Of a DNA stretch of 35,878 nt, positions 598 to 27,354 are shown one piece after another (the stretch's first letter is position 1; each line of letters begins with the position of its first letter). The notes under the pieces were generated by a model, which saw only the letters and a program-made list of their open reading frames with translations, was not told the origin of the DNA and did no database searches. The position numbers and the translations under genes were made by a program. The stretch is from a virus (taxonomy: Duplodnaviria; Heunggongvirae; Uroviricota; Caudoviricetes), in the IMG/VR virus record IMGVR_UViG_2703718854_000001, one strand, 5' to 3'.

Positions 598-1611
598 TTA
601 CTCTACTGTGGACACTGTGTGGACACTCTCGGCCTCAGTACCACCTCTTAGCGGATTAAGAGAAATGGCGTCCTGAAGGTACTCTGGCGCAAAATGAGCG
701 TAAACCATAGTTTGCTCAATCCGCGTGTGACCTAGTATCCGTTGTAGCGTGATAATACTTCCTCCATTAATCATGAAATGAGTGGCAAAGCTGTGCCTTA
801 GTGCATGTGTGGCTTGCCCCATTGGCAAATCCGGTTTTATTGCTTTCATTGTTCGTCTGAAGCGAGGGTAATCAGCATCAGGGAATAAAAAACCTCGTTT
901 GTTATCCGCGATCATTTTGGCAACAGCCTCTGAGATCGGGACGGTGCGTGGTTTGTTTGTTTTCGTTTTAACAAACGTGACGCGGTTATGGATGATATTT
1001 TCTGCTTTCAAACGAGCTGCTTCTCCCCAACGTGCTCCAGTACTCAGGCAAAGAATCGCAATCTTTTTGTTGTCGCCGTCAAGAGCAGCAAGCAGTAAGG
1101 CAATTTCTTCCTGCGTGAGATAGCCTGTGTCTGGTTTTTCCTCCTTAAGCCTTTTTGTCCCTCTGATAGGGTGCTCACCAAAGAATAACTCCGCTTCAAT
1201 CAGGGCTGTAAACATGCCGCTAATACATGTTAAATCACGATTGATACTCGAAGGTTTAATACCCTGACTTCTTCGGGTGGCGCAGTACTGGCTGATAAGC
1301 GATTTCGTAATTTGAAATGCGCATGGGTCATTCGTTATTTTTGTGAAGATTTCAATTTTTCCAAGATTAGATTTCCCATGCTCTTCGTGTTTACCCTTTA
1401 AATCCCACCAGATCTGTGTCAGCTCCGACAGACGTCGCTTGTCTGTTGGTTTTGATAGCCATTCTTTATTGTGGTGGTTGTACAACGTGTATTTCTCGAA
1501 AGCGACAGCTTCGCTTTTCTTATCAAACTTCCTACGGATGCGTTTTCCATTACGTCCAGTAGGGCGGATGTCCACTTCATATCGACCATCATCGAGTTTT
1601 TTGATTGCCAT
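598..1611 (-). CDS. int: Tyrosine integrase, P2 Int-like (337 aa)
   Basis: 337 aa, same length as P2 Int; C-terminal catalytic signature (ARWGEAARL, HALRHSFATHF, MVYAHF); sits beside attL. Confidence 0.93.
   Translation of the reverse strand: MAIKKLDDGRYEVDIRPTGRNGKRIRRKFDKKSEAVAFEKYTLYNHHNKEWLSKPTDKRRLSELTQIWWDLKGKHEEHGKSNLGKIEIFTKITNDPCAFQITKSLISQYCATRRSQGIKPSSINRDLTCISGMFTALIEAELFFGEHPIRGTKRLKEEKPDTGYLTQEEIALLLAALDGDNKKIAILCLSTGARWGEAARLKAENIIHNRVTFVKTKTNKPRTVPISEAVAKMIADNKRGFLFPDADYPRFRRTMKAIKPDLPMGQATHALRHSFATHFMINGGSIITLQRILGHTRIEQTMVYAHFAPEYLQDAISLNPLRGGTEAESVHTVSTVE
607..625. promoter_or_regulatory. Candidate Int arm-type binding sites: two direct TGTGGACAC repeats 10 bp apart
   Basis: Direct repeats at 607-615 and 617-625; a similar TGTGG(T/A)C pair lies on the other arm at 34286-34304. 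Confidence 0.35.
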
Positions 1612-2140: not shown

Positions 2141-2416
2141 ATGAGCAAGCAAGTAACACTCATGACTGATGCGATTCCTTATCAGGAGTTCGCAAAACTA
2201 ATAGGAAAATCGACAGGAGCGGTTCGTCGGATGATCGATAAAGGAAAGCTGCCTGTAATTGATATGACCGATCCACAATCAGCTTCAGGTCGTGCAGGTG
2301 AATATTGGGTATACCTTCCGGCATGGAATAACGGACTAAAACTGGCTTATGAAAGCCGCCCTAAAGAGATTCGTGACGGCTGGTTGATGTGGTTAGGTCT
2401 CGGTGAACCACGTTAA
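2141..2416 (+). CDS. cox: Cox excisionase / transcriptional regulator (91 aa)
   Basis: 91 aa as in P2 Cox; first gene of the early operon, divergent from C. Confidence 0.9.
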   Translation: MSKQVTLMTDAIPYQEFAKLIGKSTGAVRRMIDKGKLPVIDMTDPQSASGRAGEYWVYLPAWNNGLKLAYESRPKEIRDGWLMWLGLGEPR

Positions 2417-2426
2417 GGAGAACCGT

Positions 2427-2597
2427 ATGAATGAGCCTCGTTGTATTGCTCAGTTACTGCGTAACGAAAGCCCCAGGGCGATTGACTTCACCATCACCCA
2501 TGGTAAGGGGCGTAAGGGAATCATTATCCGCACCAAAAAACAGAGTCCGTTAAAAAAGGCTCTGACCTTTCTGAAAAGCCGGAGGGTATGGAAATGA
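2427..2597 (+). CDS. Small early protein at the P2 orf78 position
   Basis: ATG at 2427 preceded by AAGGAG with a 6-nt spacer; position between cox and B. Confidence 0.55.
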   Translation: MNEPRCIAQLLRNESPRAIDFTITHGKGRKGIIIRTKKQSPLKKALTFLKSRRVWK

Positions 2598-3094
2598 CAG
2601 TGATGACGCTCAATCTCGTTGAAAAACAGCCAGCAGCTATGCGCCGGATAATTGGTAAGCATCTTGCCGTTCCTCGCTGGCAGGATACATGTGATTATTA
2701 TAATCAGATGATGGAGCGCGAACGGCTAACAGTTTGCTTTCATGCGCAGTTAAAACAGCGTCACGCAACGATGCGTTTTGAAGAAATGAACGACGTCGAA
2801 CGTGAACGACTGGTATGTGCAATTGATGAATTGCGTGGGGCATTCTCAAAACGTCGTCAGGTCGGTGCAAGTGAGTATGCATATATTAGTTTTTTAACAG
2901 TCAGTCAGCGTCGTACTTTATTTATGCATGCCGGATTGACTGAAAAAGAATTTAACCAGCCATACTGGCGAATTAATGAAGAGTCATGTTACTGGCGTGA
3001 TGCTTTATTCCGTGCATTACGTGAATTATTCAGCCTGTTTGAGTATGCACCGACAATTCTGACATCGGTAAAACCAGAGCAATATCTGCATTAA
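2594..3094 (+). CDS. B: Replication protein B (helicase-loader-like), 166 aa
   Basis: Position and 166-aa length match P2 B; GGAGGG Shine-Dalgarno 7 nt upstream of the ATG at 2594. Confidence 0.75.
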   Translation: MTVMTLNLVEKQPAAMRRIIGKHLAVPRWQDTCDYYNQMMERERLTVCFHAQLKQRHATMRFEEMNDVERERLVCAIDELRGAFSKRRQVGASEYAYISFLTVSQRRTLFMHAGLTEKEFNQPYWRINEESCYWRDALFRALRELFSLFEYAPTILTSVKPEQYLH

Positions 3095-3157
3095 GTAATT
3101 AACCAGAGTTTTTAACGCACTTAATTGTGCGGGGCTTCTTTTTGCCTGGAGAAAGTC

Positions 3158-3382
3158 ATGCATACAGTTTCTGAAAATCAGTGCGGTAAATACGCATTAC
3201 TGCTGCAACAGGCCAGAACCGAAGCACAGGCCGATGCAGCGACGCGCTTTTCTTCTCATCTTGACGCCATGATTCGCCACATCACAAAGGCGGAGTTATC
3301 CCGCGTGGAGATAGTCGAGCTGCTCAGTCAGGAGTCGGAAAAATTTCACAACATCGGATTGTCTCGCGGGGAGGTGCTTTGA
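3158..3382 (+). CDS. Small early protein at the P2 orf80 position
   Basis: Position in the early operon; ATG at 3158 with GGAGAAAG upstream. Confidence 0.5.
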
Positions 3383-3684
3383 TGTCCTGTTCTCGTTCAG
3401 TTGTTTTACTGAACAATGCCTTAAAAATCGCCGTTATGAAAAATGGCGATTTGTCTCTTATTCAACTTGGTCTTGATAAAGAAAAACGCGAAATAACTGA
3501 ATCTGTTATCGCGATTTATCAGAGTGAATTAAACCTCCTGTCTGATGTGGTCAATTTACTTGTTAAACGCGCTGTATTTCACAAGCAAATTTCCTCCGTG
3601 GATGAACTGACGAAATTAACGACAGAAATCGCCAGCTATTGCGCTGATGAATTTAAAAAACTGAACGACAAAAGGAACTGGTAA
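3382..3684 (+). CDS. Small early protein at the P2 orf81 position
   Basis: Translationally coupled to the previous ORF; GGGGAGG Shine-Dalgarno. Confidence 0.55.
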   Translation: MSCSRSVVLLNNALKIAVMKNGDLSLIQLGLDKEKREITESVIAIYQSELNLLSDVVNLLVKRAVFHKQISSVDELTKLTTEIASYCADEFKKLNDKRNW

Positions 3685-3908
3685 TGCCGGACAACGTAGA
3701 TTTTATTCAGGAACAACAGGCTGAATTACTGGAGCGCCAGATTAACGCGGCAAGGGTAAAACATTGCGGTGCTTCTGCGCTGGTTTGCGAAGAGTGTGAC
3801 GCGCCAATACCTGCTGCCCGTCGTGCGGCTTATCCGTCAGCCACGCGTTGTGTTTCCTGTCAGGCAGTCTTTGAAGCAAAAAACAAACATTACCGGAGAA
3901 CGGCATGA
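3684..3908 (+). CDS. C4 zinc-finger protein, TraR/DksA-like, at the P2 orf82 position
   Basis: CxxC...CxxC motif (CEECD...CVSCQ); translationally coupled. Confidence 0.65.
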   Translation: MPDNVDFIQEQQAELLERQINAARVKHCGASALVCEECDAPIPAARRAAYPSATRCVSCQAVFEAKNKHYRRTA

Positions 3909-4180
3909 GTATTCGTATTGAAATTGGCGAACGTTATGTCGTTACCAGTGACAGCTTTCAGTTTATTCTCCACGAGAAAAAGAGAGCGGAAAGCGGTAAA
4001 AACGCCGGTCAGGAATGGCTGGCGGTGGTTGGTTATTACCCGAAATTAAGCCAGCTCGTTTCCGGCCTGATGCATCACGATATTCTGACCGGAAGCGCAA
4101 AATCTTTTGCCGATTTAAACGTGCAGGTTGAGCAACTCAGCAGGCGTTGTTCAGAGGCTTTTGGCTCATATGGACGTTAA
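3905..4180 (+). CDS. Small early protein at the P2 orf83 position
   Basis: Position immediately upstream of A; overlapping start/stop. Confidence 0.55.
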   Translation: MSIRIEIGERYVVTSDSFQFILHEKKRAESGKNAGQEWLAVVGYYPKLSQLVSGLMHHDILTGSAKSFADLNVQVEQLSRRCSEAFGSYGR

Positions 4181-6458
4181 AGCCTCCGGGCGTTTTGTCC
4201 CTCCGTCAGCATTTGCCGCAGACACCGGTAAGACGTTTACCGGTGCTTATGCATGGAACGCGCCACGCGAGGCTGTCGGGCGCGAAAGACCCCTTACACG
4301 TGACGAGATGCGTCAGGTGCAAGGTGTTTTATCCACGATAAATCGCCTGCCTTATTTTTTGCGCTCGCTGTTTACTTCACGCTATGACTACATCCGGCGC
4401 AATAAAAGCCCGGTGCACGGGTTTTATTTCCTCACATCCACTTTTCAGCGTCGTTTATGGCCGCGTATTGAGCGTGTGAATCAGCGCCATGAAATGAACA
4501 CCGACGCGTCGTTGCTGTTTTTGGCAGAGCGTGACCACTATGCACGCCTGCCGGGAATGAATGACAAGGAGCTGAAAAAGTTTGCCGCCCGTATCTCATC
4601 GCAGCTTTTCATGATGTATGAGGAACTCTGCGATGCCTGGGTGGATGCGCATGGCGAAAAAGAATCGCTGTTTACGGATGAGGCGCAGGCTCACCTGTAT
4701 GGTCATGTTGCTGGCGCTGCACGTGCTTTCAATATTTCCCCTCTCTACTGGAAAAAATACCGTAAAGGGCAGATGACCACGAGGCAGGCATATTCTGCCA
4801 TTGCCCGTCTGTTTAACGATGAGTGGTGGACTCATCAGCTTAAAGGCCAGCGTATGCGTTGGCATGAGGCGTTACTGATTGCTGTCGGGGAGGTAAATAA
4901 AGACCGTTCACCTTATGCCAGTAAACATGCTATTCGTGATGTGCGTGCGCGCCGCCAGGCAAATCTGGAATTTCTTAAATCGTGTGACCTTGAAAACAGG
5001 GAAACCGGCGAACGCATCGACCTTATCAGTAAGGTGATGGGCAGTATTTCTAATCCAGAAATTCGCCGGATGGAGCTGATGAACACCATCGCCGGAATTG
5101 AGCGTTACGCCGCCGCAGAGGGTGATGTGGGGATGTTTATCACGCTGACCGCGCCGTCAAAGTATCACCCGACACGTCAGGTCGGAAAAGGCGAAAGTAA
5201 AACCGTCCAGCTTAATCACGGCTGGAACCATGAGGCATTTAATCCAAAGGATGCGCAGCGTTATCTCTGCCGTATCTGGAGCCTGATGCGCACGGCATTC
5301 AAGGATAATGATTTACAGGCCTACGGTTTGCGTGTCGTTGAGCCACACCACGACGGAACGCCGCACTGGCATATGATGCTTTTTTGTAATCCACGCCAGC
5401 GTAACCAGATTATTGAAATCATGCGTCGCTATGCGCTCAAAGAGGATGGCGACGAAAGAGGAGCCGCGCGAAACCGTTTTCAGGCAAAACACCTTAACCG
5501 GGGCGGTGCTGCGGGGTATATCGCGAAATACATCTCAAAAAACATCGATGGCTATGCACTGGATGGTCAGCTCGATAACGATACCGGCAGACCGCTGAAA
5601 GACACTGCTGCGGCTGTTACCGCATGGGCGTCAACGTGGCGCATCCCACAATTTAAAACGGTTGGTCTGCCGACAATGGGGGCTTACCGTGAACTACGCA
5701 AATTGCCTCGCGGCGTCAGCATTGCTGATGAGTTTGACGAGCGCGTCGAGGCTGCACGCGCCGCCGCAGACAGTGGTGATTTTGCGTTATATATCAGCGC
5801 GCAGGGTGGGGCAAATGTCCCGCGCGATTGTCAGACTGTCAGGGTCGCCCGTAGTCCGTCGGATGAAGTTAACGAGTACGAGGAAGAAGTCGAGAGAGTG
5901 GTCGGCATTTACGCGCCGCATCTCGGCGCGCGTCATATTCATATCACCAGAACGACGGACTGGCGCATTGTGCCGAAAGTTCCGGTCGTTGAGCCTTTGA
6001 CTTTAAAAAGCGGCATCGCCGCGCCTCGGAGTCCTGTCAATAACTGTGGAAAGCTCACCGGCGGTAATACTTCGTTACCGGTTCCCACGCCTTCTGAGCA
6101 CGCCGCAGCAGTGCTTAATCTGGTTGATGACGGTGTTATCGAATGGAATGACCCGGAGGTCGTGAGGACGCTCAGGGGTGCATTAAAACACGGACTGAGA
6201 AGACCAAACCGTCAGCAAAGAAACGGAAGCCCGTTAAAACCACATGAAATTGCGCCATCGGCCAGACTGACCCGGTCGGAACGAATGCAAATCACCCGTA
6301 TCCGCGTTGACCTTGCTCAGAACGGTATCAGGCCGCAGCGATGGGAGCTTGAGGCGCTGGCGCGTGGGGCAACCGTAAATTATGGCGGAAAAAAATTCAC
6401 GTATCTGGTTGCTAATGAGTGGTTCGGGTTTCAAGATGACGTGTCATTTTTCATATAA
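4170..6458 (+). CDS. A: Replication initiation protein A (rolling-circle nickase), about 762 aa
   Basis: Size and position match P2 A (761 aa); HWH and YIAKYISK motifs are typical of rolling-circle initiators; start taken at the in-frame ATG at 4170. Confidence 0.88.
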   Translation: MDVKASGRFVPPSAFAADTGKTFTGAYAWNAPREAVGRERPLTRDEMRQVQGVLSTINRLPYFLRSLFTSRYDYIRRNKSPVHGFYFLTSTFQRRLWPRIERVNQRHEMNTDASLLFLAERDHYARLPGMNDKELKKFAARISSQLFMMYEELCDAWVDAHGEKESLFTDEAQAHLYGHVAGAARAFNISPLYWKKYRKGQMTTRQAYSAIARLFNDEWWTHQLKGQRMRWHEALLIAVGEVNKDRSPYASKHAIRDVRARRQANLEFLKSCDLENRETGERIDLISKVMGSISNPEIRRMELMNTIAGIERYAAAEGDVGMFITLTAPSKYHPTRQVGKGESKTVQLNHGWNHEAFNPKDAQRYLCRIWSLMRTAFKDNDLQAYGLRVVEPHHDGTPHWHMMLFCNPRQRNQIIEIMRRYALKEDGDERGAARNRFQAKHLNRGGAAGYIAKYISKNIDGYALDGQLDNDTGRPLKDTAAAVTAWASTWRIPQFKTVGLPTMGAYRELRKLPRGVSIADEFDERVEAARAAADSGDFALYISAQGGANVPRDCQTVRVARSPSDEVNEYEEEVERVVGIYAPHLGARHIHITRTTDWRIVPKVPVVEPLTLKSGIAAPRSPVNNCGKLTGGNTSLPVPTPSEHAAAVLNLVDDGVIEWNDPEVVRTLRGALKHGLRRPNRQQRNGSPLKPHEIAPSARLTRSERMQITRIRVDLAQNGIRPQRWELEALARGATVNYGGKKFTYLVANEWFGFQDDVSFFI

Positions 6459-6535
6459 AACATTTCAAAATTCAATGTAATGAAAGCATATCGTATATCG
6501 CTTTAATATGTGTTATTCTTCTTGGTTGTTAATGT

Positions 6536-6563
6536 TTGATTTTATATGAAAAAATATTATATA
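6536..6563 (+). promoter_or_regulatory. Candidate sigma70 promoter for the RT locus (TTGATT, 16-nt spacer, TATATA)
   Basis: Sequence match only, in a very AT-rich segment where chance matches are common. Confidence 0.25.
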
Positions 6564-6619
6564 TAGAAAGATCAAATACAACGGTTTACTTGTTATGATG
6601 CAATTATTGGTTAGTTAGT

Positions 6620-6870
6620 GAGATACATCGCCATCAATTGGGTATTTTTTACCCGTGGAAAGTTAACACTTTCTACCGTTTACCCCGCGCAACGCCCCTG
6701 CCAGCGACAAGAGTCACAGGACCAGGTGGTATGGCGTATGGGAATTCGAACCCTTTGGGCGACAAAGGGTTCGTGGAGCAGGGAGCTAGTGCTGTTCAAT
6801 CTCATCCTTATGAGGGCGAACCATAGTGTTGGAGCAGACATACCGTTTGCACACTATGGGCATAAGGAGC
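6620..6870 (+). ncRNA. Candidate structured non-coding RNA or leader upstream of the RT operon (possible retron msr-msd)
   Basis: Perfect 11-bp hairpin at 6747-6773; 9-bp stem 6821-6829/6851-6859 nested in an 8-bp stem 6805-6812/6861-6868 that pairs with the downstream Shine-Dalgarno; the overlapping ORFs have no ribosome-binding site and look non-coding. Confidence 0.3.
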
Positions 6871-6875
6871 AAATC

Positions 6876-7031
6876 ATGAAGAATGATAAATTAACCAACG
6901 AACAGCAGGCGCAGAACAAGTCAAACCTGAAAAAGAGGGCTGGTTATGCTTGGGAATTATTCAAATGGGGTATTAGACTGTTTGATTTAGTCACTCGAGC
7001 ACTGGACTACTTAGAAGGGGGTGGTGAGTAA
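6876..7031 (+). CDS. Small protein (51 aa), first ORF of the RT operon
   Basis: ATG at 6876 with AAGGAG 6 nt upstream; hydrophilic N-terminus and amphipathic C-terminus; no recognisable domain. Confidence 0.35.
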   Translation: MKNDKLTNEQQAQNKSNLKKRAGYAWELFKWGIRLFDLVTRALDYLEGGGE

Positions 7032-7067
7032 TGCGTCCTCCCTAGTTTCAATAGCATGGAGTTGCCT

Positions 7068-7376
7068 ATGTTACATAAAGCCCTTCGTTTAATAAGGCAA
7101 TACCATAAAGAATCAATAGTTGAGTTATCTTCATCTTTAGGTATTCCAAAAGACAAAATAGTATCGCTTGAAAGCGGAGTTTGGTCACCGTCGATTGAAG
7201 TCTTAGAGCGTTACGCCTCCCATTTCGACATACCAGTATCCTCTTTAGTATTCTTTTCGGAATCATTAGGCACGCAAGGCCGTTTGTCTAAGCGATTGCG
7301 TTTAAATTTAGCCGGTAAAGTTCTGGATGTTCTGGAGTGGGTAAGTAATAAAAATGAAAAAACGGAAAAAGCTTAA
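7068..7376 (+). CDS. XRE-family HTH protein (about 102 aa) immediately upstream of, and overlapping, the RT gene
   Basis: Cro/C1-like HTH (SIVELSSSLGIPKDKIVSLESG); GGAG 6 nt upstream of the ATG at 7068 (alternative ATG at 7056); 3' end overlaps the RT start by 23 nt. Confidence 0.65.
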   Translation: MLHKALRLIRQYHKESIVELSSSLGIPKDKIVSLESGVWSPSIEVLERYASHFDIPVSSLVFFSESLGTQGRLSKRLRLNLAGKVLDVLEWVSNKNEKTEKA

Positions 7377-8304
7377 GGTTAATACTAAAAATAAATCTTA
7401 TGACATAATGGATTCGCCATTTTACAAACTCAAAAGTAAAAGAAAACTGGCGAATTTGCTTTGTGTTAGTCTTGAAGAATTATACTCTTTGAGAAAAGAT
7501 GAAGGAAACTATTCCGTTTTTGAGCAACTTTCTAAAAAAGGAAAAGCACGAAAAATACAAAAGCCTTTAGAAAAACTAGAACTTGTACATACACGAATTG
7601 CAAGTTTGTTATCACGGATTGCTTTGCCAGAATATCTGCACTCGGGGAAGAAGAAGTGCTCTAATGTGACGAATGCTAAAGCTCATCTTAATAATGAAAA
7701 GATGATGACAACAGATATTAAAGCTTTTTTTCCATCAACTACAAGAGGGATGATATTTTCTTTTTTCTTTTCGATGATGAAAATGTCATCTGATGTTGCT
7801 GATGTTTTGTCCCACATATGTACTTGTCATGACCGATTACCAACAGGTAGTCGCATCAGTATGCCGTTGGCATATTTTGCAAATTCAAGAATGTTTGGTG
7901 AAATATATCAACTTTGCCAAAAGTTACGAGTTAACATGACTGTTTATGTTGATGATCTCACTTTTTCAGGTGGTAACGTAAATCGATTGTTTTGCGCTGT
8001 AATTCGTAAGATCGTTAATAAGCATGGACATGTTATACACCCAACGAAAACAAAATTATATGCCAGAGATAAGCCTAAGTTGGTAACTGGAGTTATTGTA
8101 TTCGGTAATGCTTTAAAAGTTAGGAATGAGCAGCATTTTTTGATGGCTAGGGAAATAGATTATTGGAAAATAATTAAAGACGCCGAAAATGCGAGAGAAA
8201 CAATCATTGCCAAAAAGCTCTTTGGCCGTTTGCATTCAATGGGAGTGATTGAGCAACGTTACAAATCGAAGGTGCTTACTTTAAAGGCTAATACTGCAAA
8301 TTAA
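7354..8304 (+). CDS. Reverse transcriptase, retron-type (316 aa)
   Basis: YVDD active-site motif; NAKAH (NAxxH), DIKAFFPS, LPTGSxxSxxLA and a VTG motif (KLVTGVIVF) align block by block with the retron Ec86 RT recalled from memory; 316 aa is retron-sized; AT-rich cargo. Confidence 0.8.
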   Translation: MKKRKKLKVNTKNKSYDIMDSPFYKLKSKRKLANLLCVSLEELYSLRKDEGNYSVFEQLSKKGKARKIQKPLEKLELVHTRIASLLSRIALPEYLHSGKKKCSNVTNAKAHLNNEKMMTTDIKAFFPSTTRGMIFSFFFSMMKMSSDVADVLSHICTCHDRLPTGSRISMPLAYFANSRMFGEIYQLCQKLRVNMTVYVDDLTFSGGNVNRLFCAVIRKIVNKHGHVIHPTKTKLYARDKPKLVTGVIVFGNALKVRNEQHFLMAREIDYWKIIKDAENARETIIAKKLFGRLHSMGVIEQRYKSKVLTLKANTAN

Positions 8305-8427
8305 CATATTGAATGTATTGCATAAAAGCATCAATAATTAAAATGACTTGGCGTTAGTAACGCCGCAAGTGCAGGAATTTACTTTCGATGCAGGCGGCGT
8401 TGATTAGAAACCTCAGAAAGTAGTTAG

Positions 8428-8865
8428 CTATGAAGCTGACGTCACAAAATTAACGCCAAGAGTCAACAGGTTTGTCACTGCTCCAGCAATTACACCTGGA
8501 GTTCCGTCTTTTACTGCACTGATAATTTTATCACCCATCGTTTCATTACCGCCAAGTGCTTCGGGTTTTTTGTTGAGCACCGCGAGTGCTTTCTCGGTCA
8601 GGCGCACATCATGAAAACCGGTCTGATGGTCTGTTCCGTACAGAATATAGCCGTTTTCGCTTAGGAAAGTGAATGTGCCATCAACCACACTACGCAACTG
8701 ATTCAGTGCTTTCATTTCTGGTGAGTTAAGTTGGTCAAAGTAGTCATCAGGTAACGCGGCGTTAAATTTTTTGTAGGTGATGACTTGTGGTACAGGAAAG
8801 TTATCCCATAGCACCGCAAAGATTTCTGCCGTCTGTTGGTTGAATAATTCGAGATTTTTGGACAT
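8428..8865 (-). CDS. Hypothetical protein (145 aa) with a predicted C-terminal transmembrane anchor
   Basis: Good Shine-Dalgarno (GAAAGGGAA); C-terminal hydrophobic stretch GVIAGAVTNLLTLGVNFV; convergent with the RT gene. Confidence 0.55.
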   Translation of the reverse strand: MSKNLELFNQQTAEIFAVLWDNFPVPQVITYKKFNAALPDDYFDQLNSPEMKALNQLRSVVDGTFTFLSENGYILYGTDHQTGFHDVRLTEKALAVLNKKPEALGGNETMGDKIISAVKDGTPGVIAGAVTNLLTLGVNFVTSAS

Positions 8866-9196
8866 GCATAGTTCCCTTTCATCAATTAAAGACCCTTATG
8901 CCGACTGGGCAAAGAGGCTAACTGTAATGGCCTCAAATAACGACCTGAGCTCTCGCGAGGTGGATAGTTACACTGAAAAAATGGTTGAACAAGCCAGTAA
9001 AGATGAGCTTATGGTCGTTATAAAATACCTGTTAAATCACATCAGAATGAATAAATAAAATGATCTATATCAAGATGTTATCTCACATTTATGAAAGTCC
9101 GTGGACAACGATTTTTCTGCTAATTGTTGTCAGTACGTGCCTCAACAGTGTGATTGGTGCATTGCGCGGCCAGTGACAACTATAAAAATTGATCAG

Positions 9197-9224
9197 AACC
9201 GGCATCATGAATGCCGGTTTTTTT
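9197..9224 (+). terminator. Rho-independent terminator (9-bp GC-rich stem, T-run)
   Basis: aaccggcat-catga-atgccggtt followed by tttttt. Confidence 0.5.
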
Positions 9225-9382
9225 GTGCTTTTTCTGTGATATCCCCGTTTTTATCTGTGCATGCAATATGTGCATGGTTTTGCATGTGCCGGAGTTACAT
9301 GTTCTGGCCGTGCGTCCGCCAAGACTGGCGTGGCTCAAAAGCGGTATTGCAACTGCATTAAAACCGCCCCATGAAGCGGGCG

Positions 9383-9401
9383 GGCGAGGCGGGGAAAGCA
9401 C
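9383..9401. other. cos site: P2-type 19-nt cohesive-end sequence GGCGAGGCGGGGAAAGCAC
   Basis: Exact match to the P2 cohesive-end sequence as I recall it; lies between the old/tin-type region and Q, as in P2. Confidence 0.55.
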
Positions 9402-9545
9402 TGCGCGCAGCCCGTCAAGAATAAAAAACTCTCTTGCAGGTAGAAAACATTCTGTTAACATTTGTCTGGATGAAGTTTAAGTTAGAAATTTATGTTAATG
9501 AACTGATTGATACTTATGTTTTGTCAATAATTTAGGAATGTTAAG

Positions 9546-10682
9546 ATGACAAGCTATGTTACATGGGCAAATAAAGGTGGAATAGGTAAATCAACATTAT
9601 CTTTCCAATTGGCGTTAAAATACGCGAGATTAAACACGAATAAAAAAGTAATCATAATAGATATGAGCCCTCAGTGTGATGTCTCTAGAATGTTATTGGG
9701 GGGAGGGCATTTTAACGGTGAGCAAAAGATCTTGGATAGAATGACCTCTAATCCAAGGTTGACAATTTACCGGTATCTTGAGGCCTGTGTTAATGATGTT
9801 CCTTCTGGGAGGGGATGGCCTGATTCATTATCATACTTAATTGAACCTAATTCTTTTCGAGACGAAAACGCAGAAAAATTGCCTGATAATATTAGTATGG
9901 TCTGTGGAGATTTCGACTTAGAGAGGGTTACTCATAGTTTAGATAATTTGCCACAACCTCAACCAAGAGGCGGGCGTGTTCCGTCGGGTGCTCATTACTC
10001 AGCATATTTATTGCCACGCACTTTTCTACGGAAAATGGTGGAGGACTTTGAGCGCGAATACAGGGATGTGACAATTTTTATTGATACGGATCCATATTAT
10101 TCGGTAGTAACAACACATCTGGGGCTTCTGGCTGCAGACAGGTTGATTTCGGCATACTCTCCTTCATCTCAAGCAAGCCAGTATGCAGTATATCGTAGCT
10201 TAGAGTTTCTATACGATCCTAATTATGGACTGGTGCAAGAGGTTAATACACAGAGAGCAATATATGGTACCCCTTGGTTTGATAGTTTAAATAATATAAT
10301 TACAACACCGAATATATCTGTTGCAAATCTTTATATGGTAGTAAGTAACATGAATACGCCTCAGGCTGGAAGAGGACAACCTCCATACAGCCAACCCCAA
10401 AAACTACATAGACAATCGCAACAAGAAGTTATATCTAGAATTAATGACACATTAAGTAGTTTGGGGATCGCGCATGATTATGTTCATGACTATTTATGGG
10501 ATCTCAAGAGATTAGGTTTGATTTGTGATTATAATGGTTTTGATTTAGCAACAATTCAATTAGGGGAAAATTATGCGGAACCAAGTGATGATGGTAATTA
10601 TTATGTAAATACTACAGGTGGAACACCGATCCAATTATCATCCTATAATGCTAGGATCGAAACTGTTACATCAAAACTATAA
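9546..10682 (+). CDS. ParA/MinD-family P-loop ATPase with an unrecognised C-terminal extension of about 130 aa (378 aa)
   Basis: Deviant Walker A KGGIGKST; A' (IIIDMSPQ) and Walker B-like (IFIDTDP) motifs; AT-rich; no parB-like partner nearby. Confidence 0.7.
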   Translation: MTSYVTWANKGGIGKSTLSFQLALKYARLNTNKKVIIIDMSPQCDVSRMLLGGGHFNGEQKILDRMTSNPRLTIYRYLEACVNDVPSGRGWPDSLSYLIEPNSFRDENAEKLPDNISMVCGDFDLERVTHSLDNLPQPQPRGGRVPSGAHYSAYLLPRTFLRKMVEDFEREYRDVTIFIDTDPYYSVVTTHLGLLAADRLISAYSPSSQASQYAVYRSLEFLYDPNYGLVQEVNTQRAIYGTPWFDSLNNIITTPNISVANLYMVVSNMNTPQAGRGQPPYSQPQKLHRQSQQEVISRINDTLSSLGIAHDYVHDYLWDLKRLGLICDYNGFDLATIQLGENYAEPSDDGNYYVNTTGGTPIQLSSYNARIETVTSKL

Positions 10683-10688
10683 GAACTA

Positions 10689-10710
10689 GGGGAGCAAATG
10701 CTCCCTTTCT
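10689..10710 (+). terminator. Candidate rho-independent terminator after the ParA-like gene
   Basis: gggagc-aaat-gctccc hairpin followed by tttct. Confidence 0.4.
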
Positions 10711-10754
10711 ATATATGGGTTATTAATTACCCGCTTATATAAATATTGAAGAAA

Positions 10755-11774
10755 CTATAGGGTGTATTGTCTGAATTTTATTACATTCTGACCGAGCCAG
10801 CCGTTTATTTCCCGAATCCTGTCCTGTAACGGGATAAGCTCATTGCGGACAAAGACCTTTGCCACTTTCTCAATATCACCCAGCGCCCCGACGTTCTCCG
10901 GCTTGCCGCCCATCAACTGAAAGGGGATGCGGTGCGCGTCCAGCAGGTCTGCGGCGCTGGCTTTTTTGATATTAAAAAAATCATCCTTCGTTGCCACTTC
11001 ACTGAGCGGGATAATTTTAATGCCGTCGGCTTTCCCTTGTGGGGCATAGAGAAACAGGTTTTTAAAGTTGTTGCGGCCTTTCGACTTCACCATGTTTTCG
11101 CGGAGCATTTCGATATCGTTGCGATCCTGCACGGCATCGGTGACGTACATGATGTATCCGGCATGTGCGCCGTTTTCGTAATACTTGCGGCGGAACAGCG
11201 TGGCCGACTCATTCAGCCAGGCAGAGTTAAGGGCGCTGAGATATTCCGGCAGGCCGTACAGCTCCTGATTAATATCCGGCTCCAGCAGGTGAAACACGGA
11301 GCCGGGCGCGAAAGGTGTCGGCTCATGGAAGGACGGCACCCACCAGTAAACATCCTCTTCCACGCCACGGCGGGTATATTTTGCCGGTGAGGTTTCCAGT
11401 CTGATGACCTTACCGGTGGTGCTGTATCGCTTTTCCAGAAACGCATTACCGAACACCAGAAAATCCAGCACAAAGCGGCTGAAATCCTGCTGGGAAAGCC
11501 ACGGATGCGGGATAAATGTCGAGGCCAGAATATTACGTTTGACGTAAATCGGTGAGCTGTGATGCACGGCAGCACGCAGACTTTTTGCCAGACCGGTAAA
11601 GCTGACCGGTGGCTCATACCATCTGCCGTTACTGATGCACTCGACGTAATCCAGAATGTCACGACGGTCGAGTACCGGCACCGGCTCACCAAAGGTGAAT
11701 GCCTCCATTTTCGGGGCGCTGGCGGTCATTTTTTTTGCCGCAGGTTGCGGTGTTTTCCCTTTTTTCTTACTCAT
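10755..11774 (-). CDS. Q: Portal protein
   Basis: 339 aa at the position of P2 Q (344 aa); stop/start overlap with P. Confidence 0.88.
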   Translation of the reverse strand: MSKKKGKTPQPAAKKMTASAPKMEAFTFGEPVPVLDRRDILDYVECISNGRWYEPPVSFTGLAKSLRAAVHHSSPIYVKRNILASTFIPHPWLSQQDFSRFVLDFLVFGNAFLEKRYSTTGKVIRLETSPAKYTRRGVEEDVYWWVPSFHEPTPFAPGSVFHLLEPDINQELYGLPEYLSALNSAWLNESATLFRRKYYENGAHAGYIMYVTDAVQDRNDIEMLRENMVKSKGRNNFKNLFLYAPQGKADGIKIIPLSEVATKDDFFNIKKASAADLLDAHRIPFQLMGGKPENVGALGDIEKVAKVFVRNELIPLQDRIREINGWLGQNVIKFRQYTL

Positions 11775-20124: not shown

Positions 20125-20868
20125 TTATCTGGTTAAATAAGTGAGCTCACTCTCTTTAGGTATTAGCTGAGTGTCTCCTCCCCATTCGTTCATGATGTTT
20201 TTTCTCGCATTCCAGTATTCTTGGTAAGTATCTTGATGAACAGTGTAGATACTTGCTAAAAGCCAGTGTTGATACTTAAGAGTCGTGTATTGGTATTCTT
20301 CTATTATCGGTAAAATGAATAAGTTTTTTTGCTTTAGTGAGATTAAATATTCTTTTGTTTGTTTGGTGGTTCTGTCATTGTTTAAGATTCTTTCAATCTT
20401 AAATGAAAAGCCGTGCATGTTTATATTTCTTTGGAGGTGCATGAATGATGATATTGATGGGGCGATCATGTTTTGATGCGTCAGGATGTTTCTTAAATCC
20501 TCCATTAATTTTATTACTGGATTATTTCGGAATTCATGATTGATGAATGCCTCTGATTTGATTTTAATGTCGGCAATATTTAATGCTTTTGTTTTAAGTA
20601 GGTTGCGCGTTGAATCTCTAAATGATAATGCTGAAGATATATAATTGAAAAGGTGTCTTGATATGTTTAAATGTTCTTTTTTAAATTTGTCTCTGTTAAA
20701 TGAATGACGGGAAACAATGTCAGGGGAGTTGAATTTGCTTAATTCATGTTGGACAACTTCGTAATTGGCAATATGCATATGTCCAAGTAAATTGGTGTCG
20801 GAGATTTTTAAATACTCTTGATGGGCGATGGTGTCTTTTTGATTTTCCCAGATTTGATATTTATCCAT
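20125..20868 (-). CDS. AT-rich hypothetical protein (247 aa) on the opposite strand between S and V (P2 orf30 position)
   Basis: Long ORF with much lower GC than the backbone, antisense to the late operons; no domain recognised. Confidence 0.6.
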   Translation of the reverse strand: MDKYQIWENQKDTIAHQEYLKISDTNLLGHMHIANYEVVQHELSKFNSPDIVSRHSFNRDKFKKEHLNISRHLFNYISSALSFRDSTRNLLKTKALNIADIKIKSEAFINHEFRNNPVIKLMEDLRNILTHQNMIAPSISSFMHLQRNINMHGFSFKIERILNNDRTTKQTKEYLISLKQKNLFILPIIEEYQYTTLKYQHWLLASIYTVHQDTYQEYWNARKNIMNEWGGDTQLIPKESELTYLTR

Positions 20869-26127: not shown

Positions 26128-27354
26128 ATGTTACAGTTCAGCTTTGTATCAAATGACGTTGTTATGACTTACGACGGTGACAGCGGAGAACAAATAATTT
26201 GGGTTTGGGAGAGTTTAAATAAATTTCAAACAGTATGCATTTCACGAATTTTTAACTTTCAACTCCAGGATTTGAGAAACCCACCGTCAACCGTTCAGGA
26301 TTTTAATGATTACGAATATTCCTTTAATTTTGGCACGCTTAATAATGAATACATAACAGTTCCGGGACGGATTCTAAGCATTAATCGAGATGTCCTTATA
26401 CATAAGTCCATCAAGCTTGAAAGGAAAGTATTTGCGTCAGAACGCAACGTCTCCATTTTTGGTCGGCTTTCAAAACTACTCGATCACACTAATCCCATCA
26501 TCATCGGAGGAGATAAGCCGGAAGCTATACCAAAAAGCGTATTCCAGGAGTTGCAAAGTAAATTCCCCAACACAGGGGAACTGGATCGCTATGCTAATGC
26601 AAGGGTTCACGCTATTCTCGCAGGTTATCTTGATGGTATGAAAGATGCTCGCGAACGGTATGAACATTACCTAAACAGAAAAACAGTGATCAGAAAAACC
26701 GACAAACTGGGTTTAGAAGTTTTAAATAAGCTCGAAATTGAGAAATATACACTCATAAGAGACATTATCCAGGATGCGTTGAATAACAAAACTAACTTGT
26801 CTGAAGATGACTGGCAGAGCCTGATGATACCCTTCATCACATTACTTTTTCCAAAATATATCAAGGTCCTCGAGAAGGTTAAAATTTTCGACTATTACTC
26901 TAATCCTTCGGCTAAAACAAATCGGTTTATAGACATTGCACTGGTGGATGCAAACGGCAACCTTGATATCATCGAAGTCAAAAAGCCGTTTGATGATAAG
27001 ATCCTTCGCAAGACGCCCTATCGCGATAACTATATTCCTACATCAGAACTTAGCGGCGGTATTATGCAGGCTGAAAAGTATATTTTTCATTTATCTAAAT
27101 GGGGTGTTAAGGGTGAAAAAGAGCTTACGAATGCCTACAAGAATTCTCTGCCAGCGGGAATGTGTATTCGTATATCTAACCCAAAAGCCATCATCATTGT
27201 CGGGCGCGATCAGATAGCGAACGGTAACATGACCGACGGTCAGTTGCTTGATTTTGAGATAATCAAACGTAAGTACGCCAACATGATAGACATATTGACG
27301 TACGACGACCTGTTGCGTCGACTTAATAATACGATTGAAGCATTGAAAGGTTGA
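26128..27354 (+). CDS. Cargo protein at the Z/fun position (408 aa) with a C-terminal PD-(D/E)xK-like nuclease motif; Shedu (DUF4263)-like candidate
   Basis: IDIALVD...DIIEVKKP...QAEKY pattern in the C-terminal third; N-terminal 250 aa unrecognised; AT-rich; sits in the G-FI variable locus. Confidence 0.5.
   Translation: MLQFSFVSNDVVMTYDGDSGEQIIWVWESLNKFQTVCISRIFNFQLQDLRNPPSTVQDFNDYEYSFNFGTLNNEYITVPGRILSINRDVLIHKSIKLERKVFASERNVSIFGRLSKLLDHTNPIIIGGDKPEAIPKSVFQELQSKFPNTGELDRYANARVHAILAGYLDGMKDARERYEHYLNRKTVIRKTDKLGLEVLNKLEIEKYTLIRDIIQDALNNKTNLSEDDWQSLMIPFITLLFPKYIKVLEKVKIFDYYSNPSAKTNRFIDIALVDANGNLDIIEVKKPFDDKILRKTPYRDNYIPTSELSGGIMQAEKYIFHLSKWGVKGEKELTNAYKNSLPAGMCIRISNPKAIIIVGRDQIANGNMTDGQLLDFEIIKRKYANMIDILTYDDLLRRLNNTIEALKG

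Follow-up and report, generated by a model that had tools for sequence, protein, structure and literature searches.

A Type VI retron with a covarying hybrid RNA at the A-to-portal cargo locus of a P2-like prophage

Identification of a Type VI Retron

The window analysed here, which is the whole 35,878-nucleotide stretch of the IMG/VR virus record IMGVR_UViG_2703718854_000001, is a P2-like prophage, and its locus at 6591-8304 is almost certainly, as judged from its sequence, a complete Type VI retron. The locus consists of a structured hybrid RNA (hyRNA, ~6606-7055) that includes the gene of a 51-amino-acid (aa) small protein (SP), followed by the genes of a helix-turn-helix (HTH) protein and a retron reverse transcriptase (RT), all on the plus strand. 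The hyRNA, in which an msr-msd-like domain, a riboregulator and the SP coding sequence are combined, is the core of the retron system and its largest and most conserved part. RT-dependent multicopy single-stranded DNA (msDNA) is predicted to be produced from this adjacent RNA, with a template at ~6684-6773, and an anti-phage phenotype of the abortive infection kind might be expected from the relatives Retron-Vpa2, Retron-Eco12 and Retron-Sen3.

The RT gene (7354-8304, plus strand) encodes a 316-aa protein in which NAKAH, DIKAFFPS, LPTGS, YVDD and KLVTGVIVF are all present, as the initial annotation of this DNA had read, and it is matched by both PADLOC RT_VI and Pfam RVT_1. The RT_VI match covers profile positions 1-278 of 279 (E 3.9e-105, 349 bits), while the second-best PADLOC model reaches 152 bits. 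When 21 RT homologues with identities of 48-85% were aligned, residues N107, A108, H111, P163-S166, Y198-D201, T245 and G246 proved invariant. A search for a solved Type VI retron structure found none; the closest solved structures are the RTs of retrons Ec86 and Ec67, and the Ec86 RT structure (PDB 7v9u) matches RT residues 53-262 with an E-value of 6e-13.

The HTH gene (7068-7376, plus strand), which is preceded by the Shine-Dalgarno (SD) sequence GGAG at 7058-7061, encodes a 102-aa XRE-type protein that matches PADLOC HTH_VI (E 7.7e-31) and, weakly, HTH_3-type Pfam models. Its end at 7376 lies 23 nt inside the RT gene, and the overlap reported in the initial annotation is thus real. The start at ATG 7068 was set by homology in the comparison with the Vpa2 locus and gives the N-terminus MLHKALRLIRQYH, with which the PGAP annotation agrees; R7 of this protein is the counterpart of the Vpa2 residue whose R7D change is toxic. 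Type VI retrons have been defined by a clade-3 retron RT together with a 91-110 aa Cro/C1 HTH protein (cluster 2_1) and sometimes a small helical auxiliary protein (Mestre 2020). The window has an RT matching the RT_VI profile, a 102-aa HTH protein whose gene overlaps the RT gene, and the NAxxH, YxDD and VTG motifs. Because the RT_VI and HTH_VI matches and the invariant retron motifs fit this definition, the Type VI call is right, and the type that had been guessed from the letters is also that of the best PADLOC models for both proteins.

That the enzyme is instead an RT of the Abi-P2/UG, diversity-generating retroelement (DGR) or group II intron kind deserves almost no credence. Such a reading can point to the Abi-P2 RT of the same P2 locus, namely the functional non-retron RT of P2-EC30 from a variable P2 locus, which is known here from an entry in a reference list (Odegrip 2006, in that of Rousset 2022, PMC9122126), and to the RVT_1 match, which is barely over the Pfam threshold (30.4 vs 29.6 bits). 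However, all 25 listed PADLOC hits of the RT are retron RT models, among which Type VI is the best and is matched end to end; Abi-P2, DGR and group II intron models are absent from these hits, so that the grouping which the initial annotation had named as evidence against a retron was not seen. The RT has the retron motifs NAxxH and VTG, which do not vary among homologues, the nearest solved structures are the two retron RTs mentioned above, and a covarying msr-msd-like RNA adjoins the RT module. An Abi-P2/UG enzyme would have its best match among UG or Abi models and would lack an msr-msd RNA, and the window shows the opposite in both respects. Intron RNA domains, DGR template and variable repeats, and maturase domains were looked for and not found, and the Rfam scan was empty.

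The Hybrid RNA

Nucleotide conservation runs from ~6593 through to the HTH start, and the hyRNA was delimited within it on the plus strand by conservation, folding and covariation. Its transcription would start at ~6606, driven by a putative extended -10 promoter element, TGTTATGAT at 6591-6599 with the hexamer TATGAT at 6594-6599, which was read from the sequence. In most other lineages the conserved RNA is preceded, at an equal distance, by a TGnTAnnAT-like element; a consensus promoter scan gave no call at 6591-6599 owing to the weak -35. The SP and the RNA are presumably carried on one transcript. This RNA of ~450 nt had been overlooked in the first reading of the stretch.

The hyRNA region folds with a z-score of -4.7. 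For covariation, the region of 17 lineages was aligned with MAFFT and pairs were counted for the structure in window coordinates. Over 83 pairs, 87.8% of the cells are paired, against 42-48% when the partners are slid, and both-sided changes occur in 36 of the pairs (14-21 in the slid controls); in 500 shuffles neither the observed pairing nor the observed covariation was attained. The region also aligns with the Vpa2 locus L089. An Rfam scan of 6000-11000 with E-values up to 1 matched no family, so no curated Rfam model covers the hyRNA. Moreover, the RNA and SP part of the 83% identical allele of Escherichia coli KE40 (locus L003) is 93-97% identical to the window, as against 70-83% for the RT gene, and such a near-frozen RNA beside a diverged RT suggests either extreme constraint on the RNA or the exchange of modules between alleles.

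The 5' part of the hyRNA resembles an msr-msd. Two msr-like stem-loops come first, SL1 (6639-6644 with 6650-6655; 98% paired, 4 of 6 pairs changing on both sides) and SL2 (6657-6663 with 6668-6674; 97.5% paired, 2 of 7 pairs changing on both sides), and they are followed at 6684-6742 by a long variable hairpin, the predicted core msd and template for reverse transcription, which was folded lineage by lineage. The interior of this hairpin varies between lineages in sequence and in length (62-99 nt), and in every lineage it is long, essentially single and imperfect, on a conserved CCC/GGG base; the equivalent stem-loop of Vpa2 is the 63-nt msDNA region (10.1101/2025.10.22.683967). Next is a covarying hairpin at 6747-6773, a perfect 11-bp inverted repeat (I4; arms 6747-6757 and 6763-6773) which bears the first direct repeat, GGGCGAC at 6757-6763. 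The first G and the last C of this repeat close the stem, while GGCGA at 6758-6762 forms the nearly invariant loop. The 6747-6773 hairpin is predicted to be the 3' part of the template and hence to give the 5' stem-loop of the msDNA. The predicted 90-nt msDNA, complementary to 6684-6773, folds with a z-score of -3.85 into a long stem and a 5' hairpin with a TCGCC loop, which matches the published Vpa2 msDNA of 86 nt (63 + 23 nt) with its essential 5' stem-loop (10.1101/2025.10.22.683967).

The following part is organised around a three-way junction of helices D, B and C. Helix D pairs AGGGAG at 6780-6785 with CUCCCU at 7038-7043, directly past the SP stop (91% paired; A-U to G-C in 4 lineages). 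Helix B pairs UGCUGUUC at 6790-6797 with GAACAGCA at 6900-6907 (inverted repeat I13; 100% paired, 2 pairs changing on both sides), and its 3' arm consists of the SP codons for the conserved E-Q-Q. Helix C pairs GGCGC at 6908-6912, in SP codons 11-13, with GCGUC at 7033-7037 (97-100% paired, 5 of 5 pairs changing on both sides) and closes the arm that contains the remaining SP coding sequence. The three arms of the Vpa2 hyRNA are therefore found here as well, since helices D, B and C make up the junction in the minimum free energy fold.

Between these helices lies the riboregulator. An anti-SD, UCCUUAUG at 6805-6812, pairs with CAUAAGGA at 6861-6868 (inverted repeat I14; 89% paired) and thereby sequesters the SP ribosome-binding site (RBS). 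In distant lineages this complementarity is kept, by eye, with different letters, as in Vpa2 with CUCUGUAAU and AUUACGGAG. The second direct repeat, GGGCGAA at 6814-6820, is invariant at G, C, G and A in the 17 lineages, and the window thus has the pair of 7-nt direct repeats that characterises the Vpa2 hyRNA (GGGCGAC and GGGCGAA). Conserved 7-nt repeats in the msd loop and in the riboregulator loop have been reported, and docking of the msDNA was proposed there (10.1101/2025.10.22.683967); by analogy, the msDNA loop is proposed to dock on the second repeat. The anti-SD and the SD are separated by a hairpin at 6821-6859 (inverted repeat I7; 7 of 9 pairs changing on both sides). At the 3' end, the conserved element CUCCCUAGUUUCAA at 7038-7051 comprises the 3' arm of helix D and then an invariant G/UUUC motif, and its part beyond the arm, AGUUUCAA, falls in invariant columns of the alignments. 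Near the 5' end, a conserved single-stranded UCGCC at 6628-6632 is the complement of either GGGCGA repeat and has the same sequence as the predicted msDNA loop. In the RNAalifold model its partner is the loop at 6758-6761, and changes in UCGCC are only C-to-U and wobble-compatible; any functional role of this UCGCC is speculative.

Crossing Helix Sets

Covariation lends support to two more helices. In helix A, UUGGUUAGUU at 6607-6616 pairs with 6889-6898, in SP codons 5-8 (83% paired, 8 of 10 pairs changing on both sides), and helix E pairs GUGAGAU at 6618-6624 with AUCUCAU at 6799-6805 (95% paired, against 27-55% when slid; A-U to G-C in 7 lineages). Neither of them abuts the predicted template end, and both cross helices D and B. 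Because the covarying sets A/E and D/B/C cross, the models indicate either a pseudoknot or two alternative states of the RNA. Under constrained folding, the D/B/C set gives -156.9 kcal/mol, equal to the unconstrained optimum, and the A/E set gives -151.2 kcal/mol, which leaves a gap of ~6 kcal/mol; in both constrained folds the SD is paired and both GGGCGA repeats stand in loops.

The 5' UCGCC could act as a decoy, since it has the same sequence as the predicted msDNA hairpin loop. It is conceivable, though rather unlikely, that the hyRNA is a pseudoknotted or bistable switch in which UCGCC sits as an RNA decoy on GGGCGA until the msDNA displaces it. A pseudoknotted or bistable hyRNA is not yet described for the Vpa2 lineage, and alternative conformations have been proposed for the RNA of the Sen3 lineage (10.64898/2026.04.27.721009).

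The Small Protein

The SP gene (6876-7031, plus strand) is a conserved open reading frame (ORF) with the SD sequence AAGGAG at 6864-6869. The initial annotation had listed this 51-aa ORF, and it is real. Its product, a predicted toxin, is basic in its N-terminal part, has an amphipathic helix towards its C-terminus and matches phrog_15287, a phage protein family of unknown function, with an E-value of 8e-34. AlphaFold2 models it as one helix over residues 3-47 with a pLDDT of 86. Its 19-residue Kyte-Doolittle maximum of 0.63 is below that of a membrane-spanning helix, and its helical hydrophobic moment is high. In related HTH-RT loci, recovered by scanning 100,044 species genomes, an SD-preceded ORF of mostly 45-65 codons occupies the same place in nearly all cases and ends 20-40 nt before the HTH gene in nearly every one; even at ~32% RT identity an unbroken, SD-bearing ORF of 45-65 codons is still there, though its sequence is wholly changed. 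The SPs of enteric bacteria, Providencia, Xenorhabdus, Vibrio and Shewanella align, with a conserved QQ, a basic stretch and the amphipathic helix, and most of the aligned lineages have an EGGDE-like tail.

By analogy with its relatives, the SP is predicted to be the toxin of the window retron, and the suggestion in the initial annotation that the small ORF could be a toxin agrees with the experiments made in Vpa2 and Sen3. In Retron-Vpa2 (10.1101/2025.10.22.683967) and in Retron-Sen3 (10.64898/2026.04.27.721009) it is the SP that acts as the toxic effector, and stop or frameshift mutants of the SP lose both toxicity and defence in Vpa2 (10.1101/2025.10.22.683967) and in Sen3 (10.64898/2026.04.27.721009). 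The window also resembles Vpa2 in having its small protein gene between the non-coding RNA and the HTH gene.

Could the 51 codons be untranslated and conserved for RNA structure only, with a neighbouring 145-aa protein or ParA-like ATPase as the effector? The constraint on the RNA is real, as several SP codons are paired in covarying helices, and synonymous divergence (pS) of the SP is far below that of the RT (0-0.44 vs 0.54-0.79 in 7 of 8 lineages compared); against KE40, for instance, the SP has 7 amino-acid changes and no synonymous one, with an RT pS of 0.67. Low synonymous divergence is, in turn, expected of a coding sequence that doubles as structured RNA. Non-synonymous divergence (pN) is nevertheless below pS in 7 of 8 lineage comparisons, the SD-bearing ORF keeps its length and place to the limit of RT identity given above, and most of these small proteins share the basic N-terminal part and amphipathic helix. 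Together with the mutants of Vpa2 and Sen3, with neighbouring genes that differ between loci, and with a ParA-like gene that fits the partition systems of the hotspot, this makes an untranslated ORF very improbable. A 137-aa GTG ORF at 6618-7031 was rejected as a separate gene, because it prolongs the SP frame in the upstream direction, through the non-coding RNA.

Comparison with Described Retrons and Proposed Mechanism

The closest described relative is Retron-Vpa2, whose operon runs ncRNA, SP, HTH, RT and whose abundant 'hybrid RNA' of ~470 nt holds the msr-msd and the SP coding sequence (10.1101/2025.10.22.683967). In that system the SP is the toxin, the HTH protein restrains reverse transcription, and the msDNA, which is undetectable until lambda Beta and Exo or infection are supplied, is needed for SP translation (10.1101/2025.10.22.683967). 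The Vpa2 RNA has three arms that leave a central node, with the RBS and the start codon sequestered and the 3' end annealed to the first arm (10.1101/2025.10.22.683967). Two Vibrio parahaemolyticus RTs are 57% and 54% identical to that of the window. The locus with the latter, L089, encodes a 55-aa SP with K15, I39, F43 and F45 and an HTH protein with R7, and it is evidently Retron-Vpa2 or an identical allele, because these residues exactly match those mutated in the Vpa2 paper. Vpa2 and the window element share the order RNA-SP-HTH-RT, the conserved HTH N-terminus with R7, and a homologous hyRNA with SL1, SL2, the msd hairpin, a GGGCGA-type loop, the anti-SD/SD pairing, the second repeat and the 3' CCCUAGUUUC element. 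They differ in that the SPs, of 55 and 51 aa, have no significant pairwise similarity, the msd interiors are unrelated, and Vpa2 lies in a Vibrio chromosomal island whereas the window retron lies in an E. coli P2 prophage.

Retron-Eco12 is, like the window element, an E. coli Type VI retron; it is related to Vpa2, defends against lambda-vir and has no detected basal msDNA (10.1101/2025.10.22.683967). The window element may be the published Retron-Eco12 or an allele of it; a sequence or accession for Eco12 was not found in the preprint text, in its supplements or by full-text search with peptide sequences and WP accessions. Retron-Sen3 of Salmonella (cl2075) has a 79-aa SP, its single-stranded DNA (ssDNA) and SP are constitutive, and control lies with the HTH antitoxin and the status of RecBCD; its trigger requires Gam, i.e., inhibition of RecBCD (10.64898/2026.04.27.721009). 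Sen3 is like the window in its SP-HTH-RT order, in an SP gene within a covarying RNA scaffold and in alternative long-range pairings, and its HTH protein is needed for viability; it is unlike the window in its longer SP with extra N- and C-terminal segments and in belonging to a different RT sub-clade. More distantly, Eco1 (Ec86) and other canonical retrons have a homologous RT in which NAxxH, YxDD and VTG occur, and their template, too, is of the msr-msd type and includes a long msd hairpin. Their msDNA is abundant and acts as an antitoxin and their effector is a separate enzyme, whereas the scarce msDNA of the Vpa2 type has been proposed to turn on a toxin that the same RNA encodes (10.1101/2025.10.22.683967).

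In view of its lineage, its SP type, and its conserved repeats and riboregulator, the window retron probably works in the Vpa2 manner, with a phage recombination trigger leading, through msDNA, to derepression of SP translation. The RNA helices, genes and repeats on which this model is built are read from the window, while complex formation, the trigger, msDNA accumulation and the toxicity steps are carried over by analogy from the relatives. The promoter near 6591-6599 would drive the ~450-nt hybrid RNA, the HTH protein and RT would be translated from the overlapping downstream genes, and RT, HTH protein and hybrid RNA would form a complex. The msDNA would be kept low by host nucleases, RecBCD among them, and the HTH protein would hold back reverse transcription. 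Upon infection, phage recombination proteins, that is, an annealing protein and an exonuclease as in lambda Red, might allow the ~90-nt msDNA to accumulate; the TCGCC loop of its 5' hairpin might then dock on the second GGGCGA repeat and open the anti-SD/SD helix. The SP would subsequently be translated, and this amphipathic helical toxin would stop growth, so that the infected cell releases no phage. Since P2 has no Red-like system, the prophage would not be expected to trigger its own retron.

Several points weigh against this model. The RT of Vpa2 is only 54% identical to that of the window. A BLASTP comparison of the window SP with the Vpa2 SP is not significant (E 0.73), so the case for their homology is made by position, by intermediate sequences and by the RNA that they share. 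Neither the priming guanosine nor the first templated base, sought by a1/a2 analogy with canonical retrons, was located, and a simple model does not account for the crossing of the two covarying helix sets. Docking of the msDNA on the repeat is a hypothesis in the Vpa2 paper too (10.1101/2025.10.22.683967). Moreover, Sen3, with the same gene order, works in another way: its ssDNA and SP are constitutive and the HTH protein exerts control at the protein level; RBS sequestration is predicted there as well (10.64898/2026.04.27.721009). Because the Sen3 SP is made constitutively despite that predicted sequestration, SD sequestration alone is no proof of translational control.

A mechanism of the Sen3 kind, in which ssDNA and SP are constitutive, the HTH antitoxin binds and neutralises the SP, loss of RecBCD activity frees the toxin and the msDNA level is not the signal, is a rival that seems rather unlikely for the window. 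It has been shown for a retron with the same SP-HTH-RT order and with an SP inside a structured RNA, and in both Vpa2 and Sen3 inactivation of the HTH protein is toxic and the HTH protein co-purifies with the RT. On the other hand, Sen3 belongs to cl2075, whose SPs of 75-79 aa (79 aa in Sen3) carry N-terminal and C-terminal amphipathic extensions, the latter being the proposed HTH interface; the window SP, at 51 aa, is outside this range and aligns with the 55-aa Vpa2 type, and no SP of 75-79 aa occurs among loci with an RT at least 40% identical. The window also retains both GGGCGA repeats, which are central to the Vpa2 model, and the E. coli relative Eco12 is without detectable basal msDNA.

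Distribution and Alleles

Of 5426 complete E. coli genomes, 100 carry the SP-HTH-RT module together with its RNA, in every case on the chromosome. At least five alleles were found in E. coli: four are ~99, 96, 83 and 82% identical in nucleotide sequence, and the fifth is ~64-65% identical at the level of the RT protein. This fifth allele (L002; E. coli C5, NZ_CP010122.1, 2215613-2222825) is not in a P2 prophage but in an island adjoining yeiP, together with a DUF4236 gene, a gene of the YkgJ family and a recombinase. Because this allele lies in a non-P2 island, the module appears to move between types of mobile element; it is also found in Peduovirus P22H1 and in Klebsiella P2-like phages. As well, in at least 8 'complete' E. 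coli assemblies (e.g., NZ_CM128599.1, NZ_LR890334.1 and NZ_CP115376.1) the retron match falls at 2290-4135 or 2298-4128. These assemblies appear to start at P2 gene A, exactly or to within a few bases of its beginning, and seem to have been rotated to the prophage replication gene, not to dnaA.

Prophage Setting and Neighbouring Genes

The prophage has its integrase at 598-1611 (minus strand), the P2 replication protein gpA at 4128-6458 (plus strand; Pfam Phage_GPA, E 3e-123) and the portal gene at 10755-11774 (minus strand). The retron module sits in AT-rich cargo between gene A and the portal gene, where GC content is 0.35-0.44 (0.35-0.41 across 6501-8500), as against 0.50-0.57 in the flanking P2 genes; both the GC content and the flanking genes accord with the view in the initial annotation that this is AT-rich cargo at the tin/old position of P2. 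The A-to-portal/cos site of P2 is an exchangeable hotspot of anti-phage cargo with retrons among its contents (Rousset et al. 2022, PMC9122126). The window retron shares this insertion site with the likewise AT-rich and exchangeable tin and old cargo, to whose proteins it is unrelated, and Type VI retrons were not singled out in that study (PMC9122126).

A gene at 8428-8865 (minus strand), convergent with the RT gene, encodes a 145-aa protein of unknown function that matches phrog_2266 (E 1e-60) and found no match in Pfam and PADLOC searches. It or a homologue adjoins the retron in E. coli EF7-18-58 and in Klebsiella phage ST147-VIM1phi7.1, while in strain KE40 the gene downstream of the retron encodes an FRG-domain protein, and further retron-bearing P2 prophages have still others. 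Since the downstream gene varies in this way between loci, the convergent gene was rejected as effector or partner, and the earlier idea that it might be the missing toxin does not hold. Beyond it, a ParA-like P-loop ATPase of 378 aa is encoded at 9546-10682 (plus strand; Pfam AAA_31/CbiA, ParA-like phrog_164, no PADLOC match). It is co-directional with the RT gene, which corrects the earlier statement that no such ATPase was present, and it was rejected as the effector because of its place beyond the convergent gene and its lack of conservation with the module. Putative partition systems occur in about a quarter of P2-like phages at the A-to-cos hotspot (PMC9122126), and the ParA-like ATPase probably belongs to them.

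Elsewhere in the prophage, a full-length Shedu protein SduA of 408 aa is encoded at 26128-27354 (plus strand; PADLOC PDLC04067, E 4e-219; Pfam SduA_C), in AT-rich cargo at the Z/fun position of P2. The prophage thus carries at least two defence systems, the Type VI retron and Shedu. In addition, an AT-rich ORF of 247 aa (GC ~0.35) at 20125-20868 (minus strand), for which Pfam and PADLOC gave no match, lies between tail-completion-like and baseplate-like genes and may be further cargo at the orf30 position of P2.

Significance

The retron type and its likely mechanism are already known from the 2025-2026 preprints, and the window element is no new kind of system; the statement in the initial annotation that effector and mechanism were unknown has been outdated by the work on Vpa2/Eco12 and on Sen3. 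The element is detectable with standard tools such as PADLOC, and retrons are known cargo of the hotspot. What remains of value is the crossing of its helix sets and its use as a native E. coli model. If the proposed switch and decoy are true, they would provide a concrete mechanism for msDNA-triggered toxin translation and might explain the 'inducible' versus 'constitutively armed' behaviour of related Type VI retrons. As a model, the element combines a well-understood prophage and ~100 natural alleles with a hypervariable msd, a nearly frozen riboregulator and testable helices, and it offers a natural E. coli system for a type of retron in which the two members studied so far seem to act in opposite ways.

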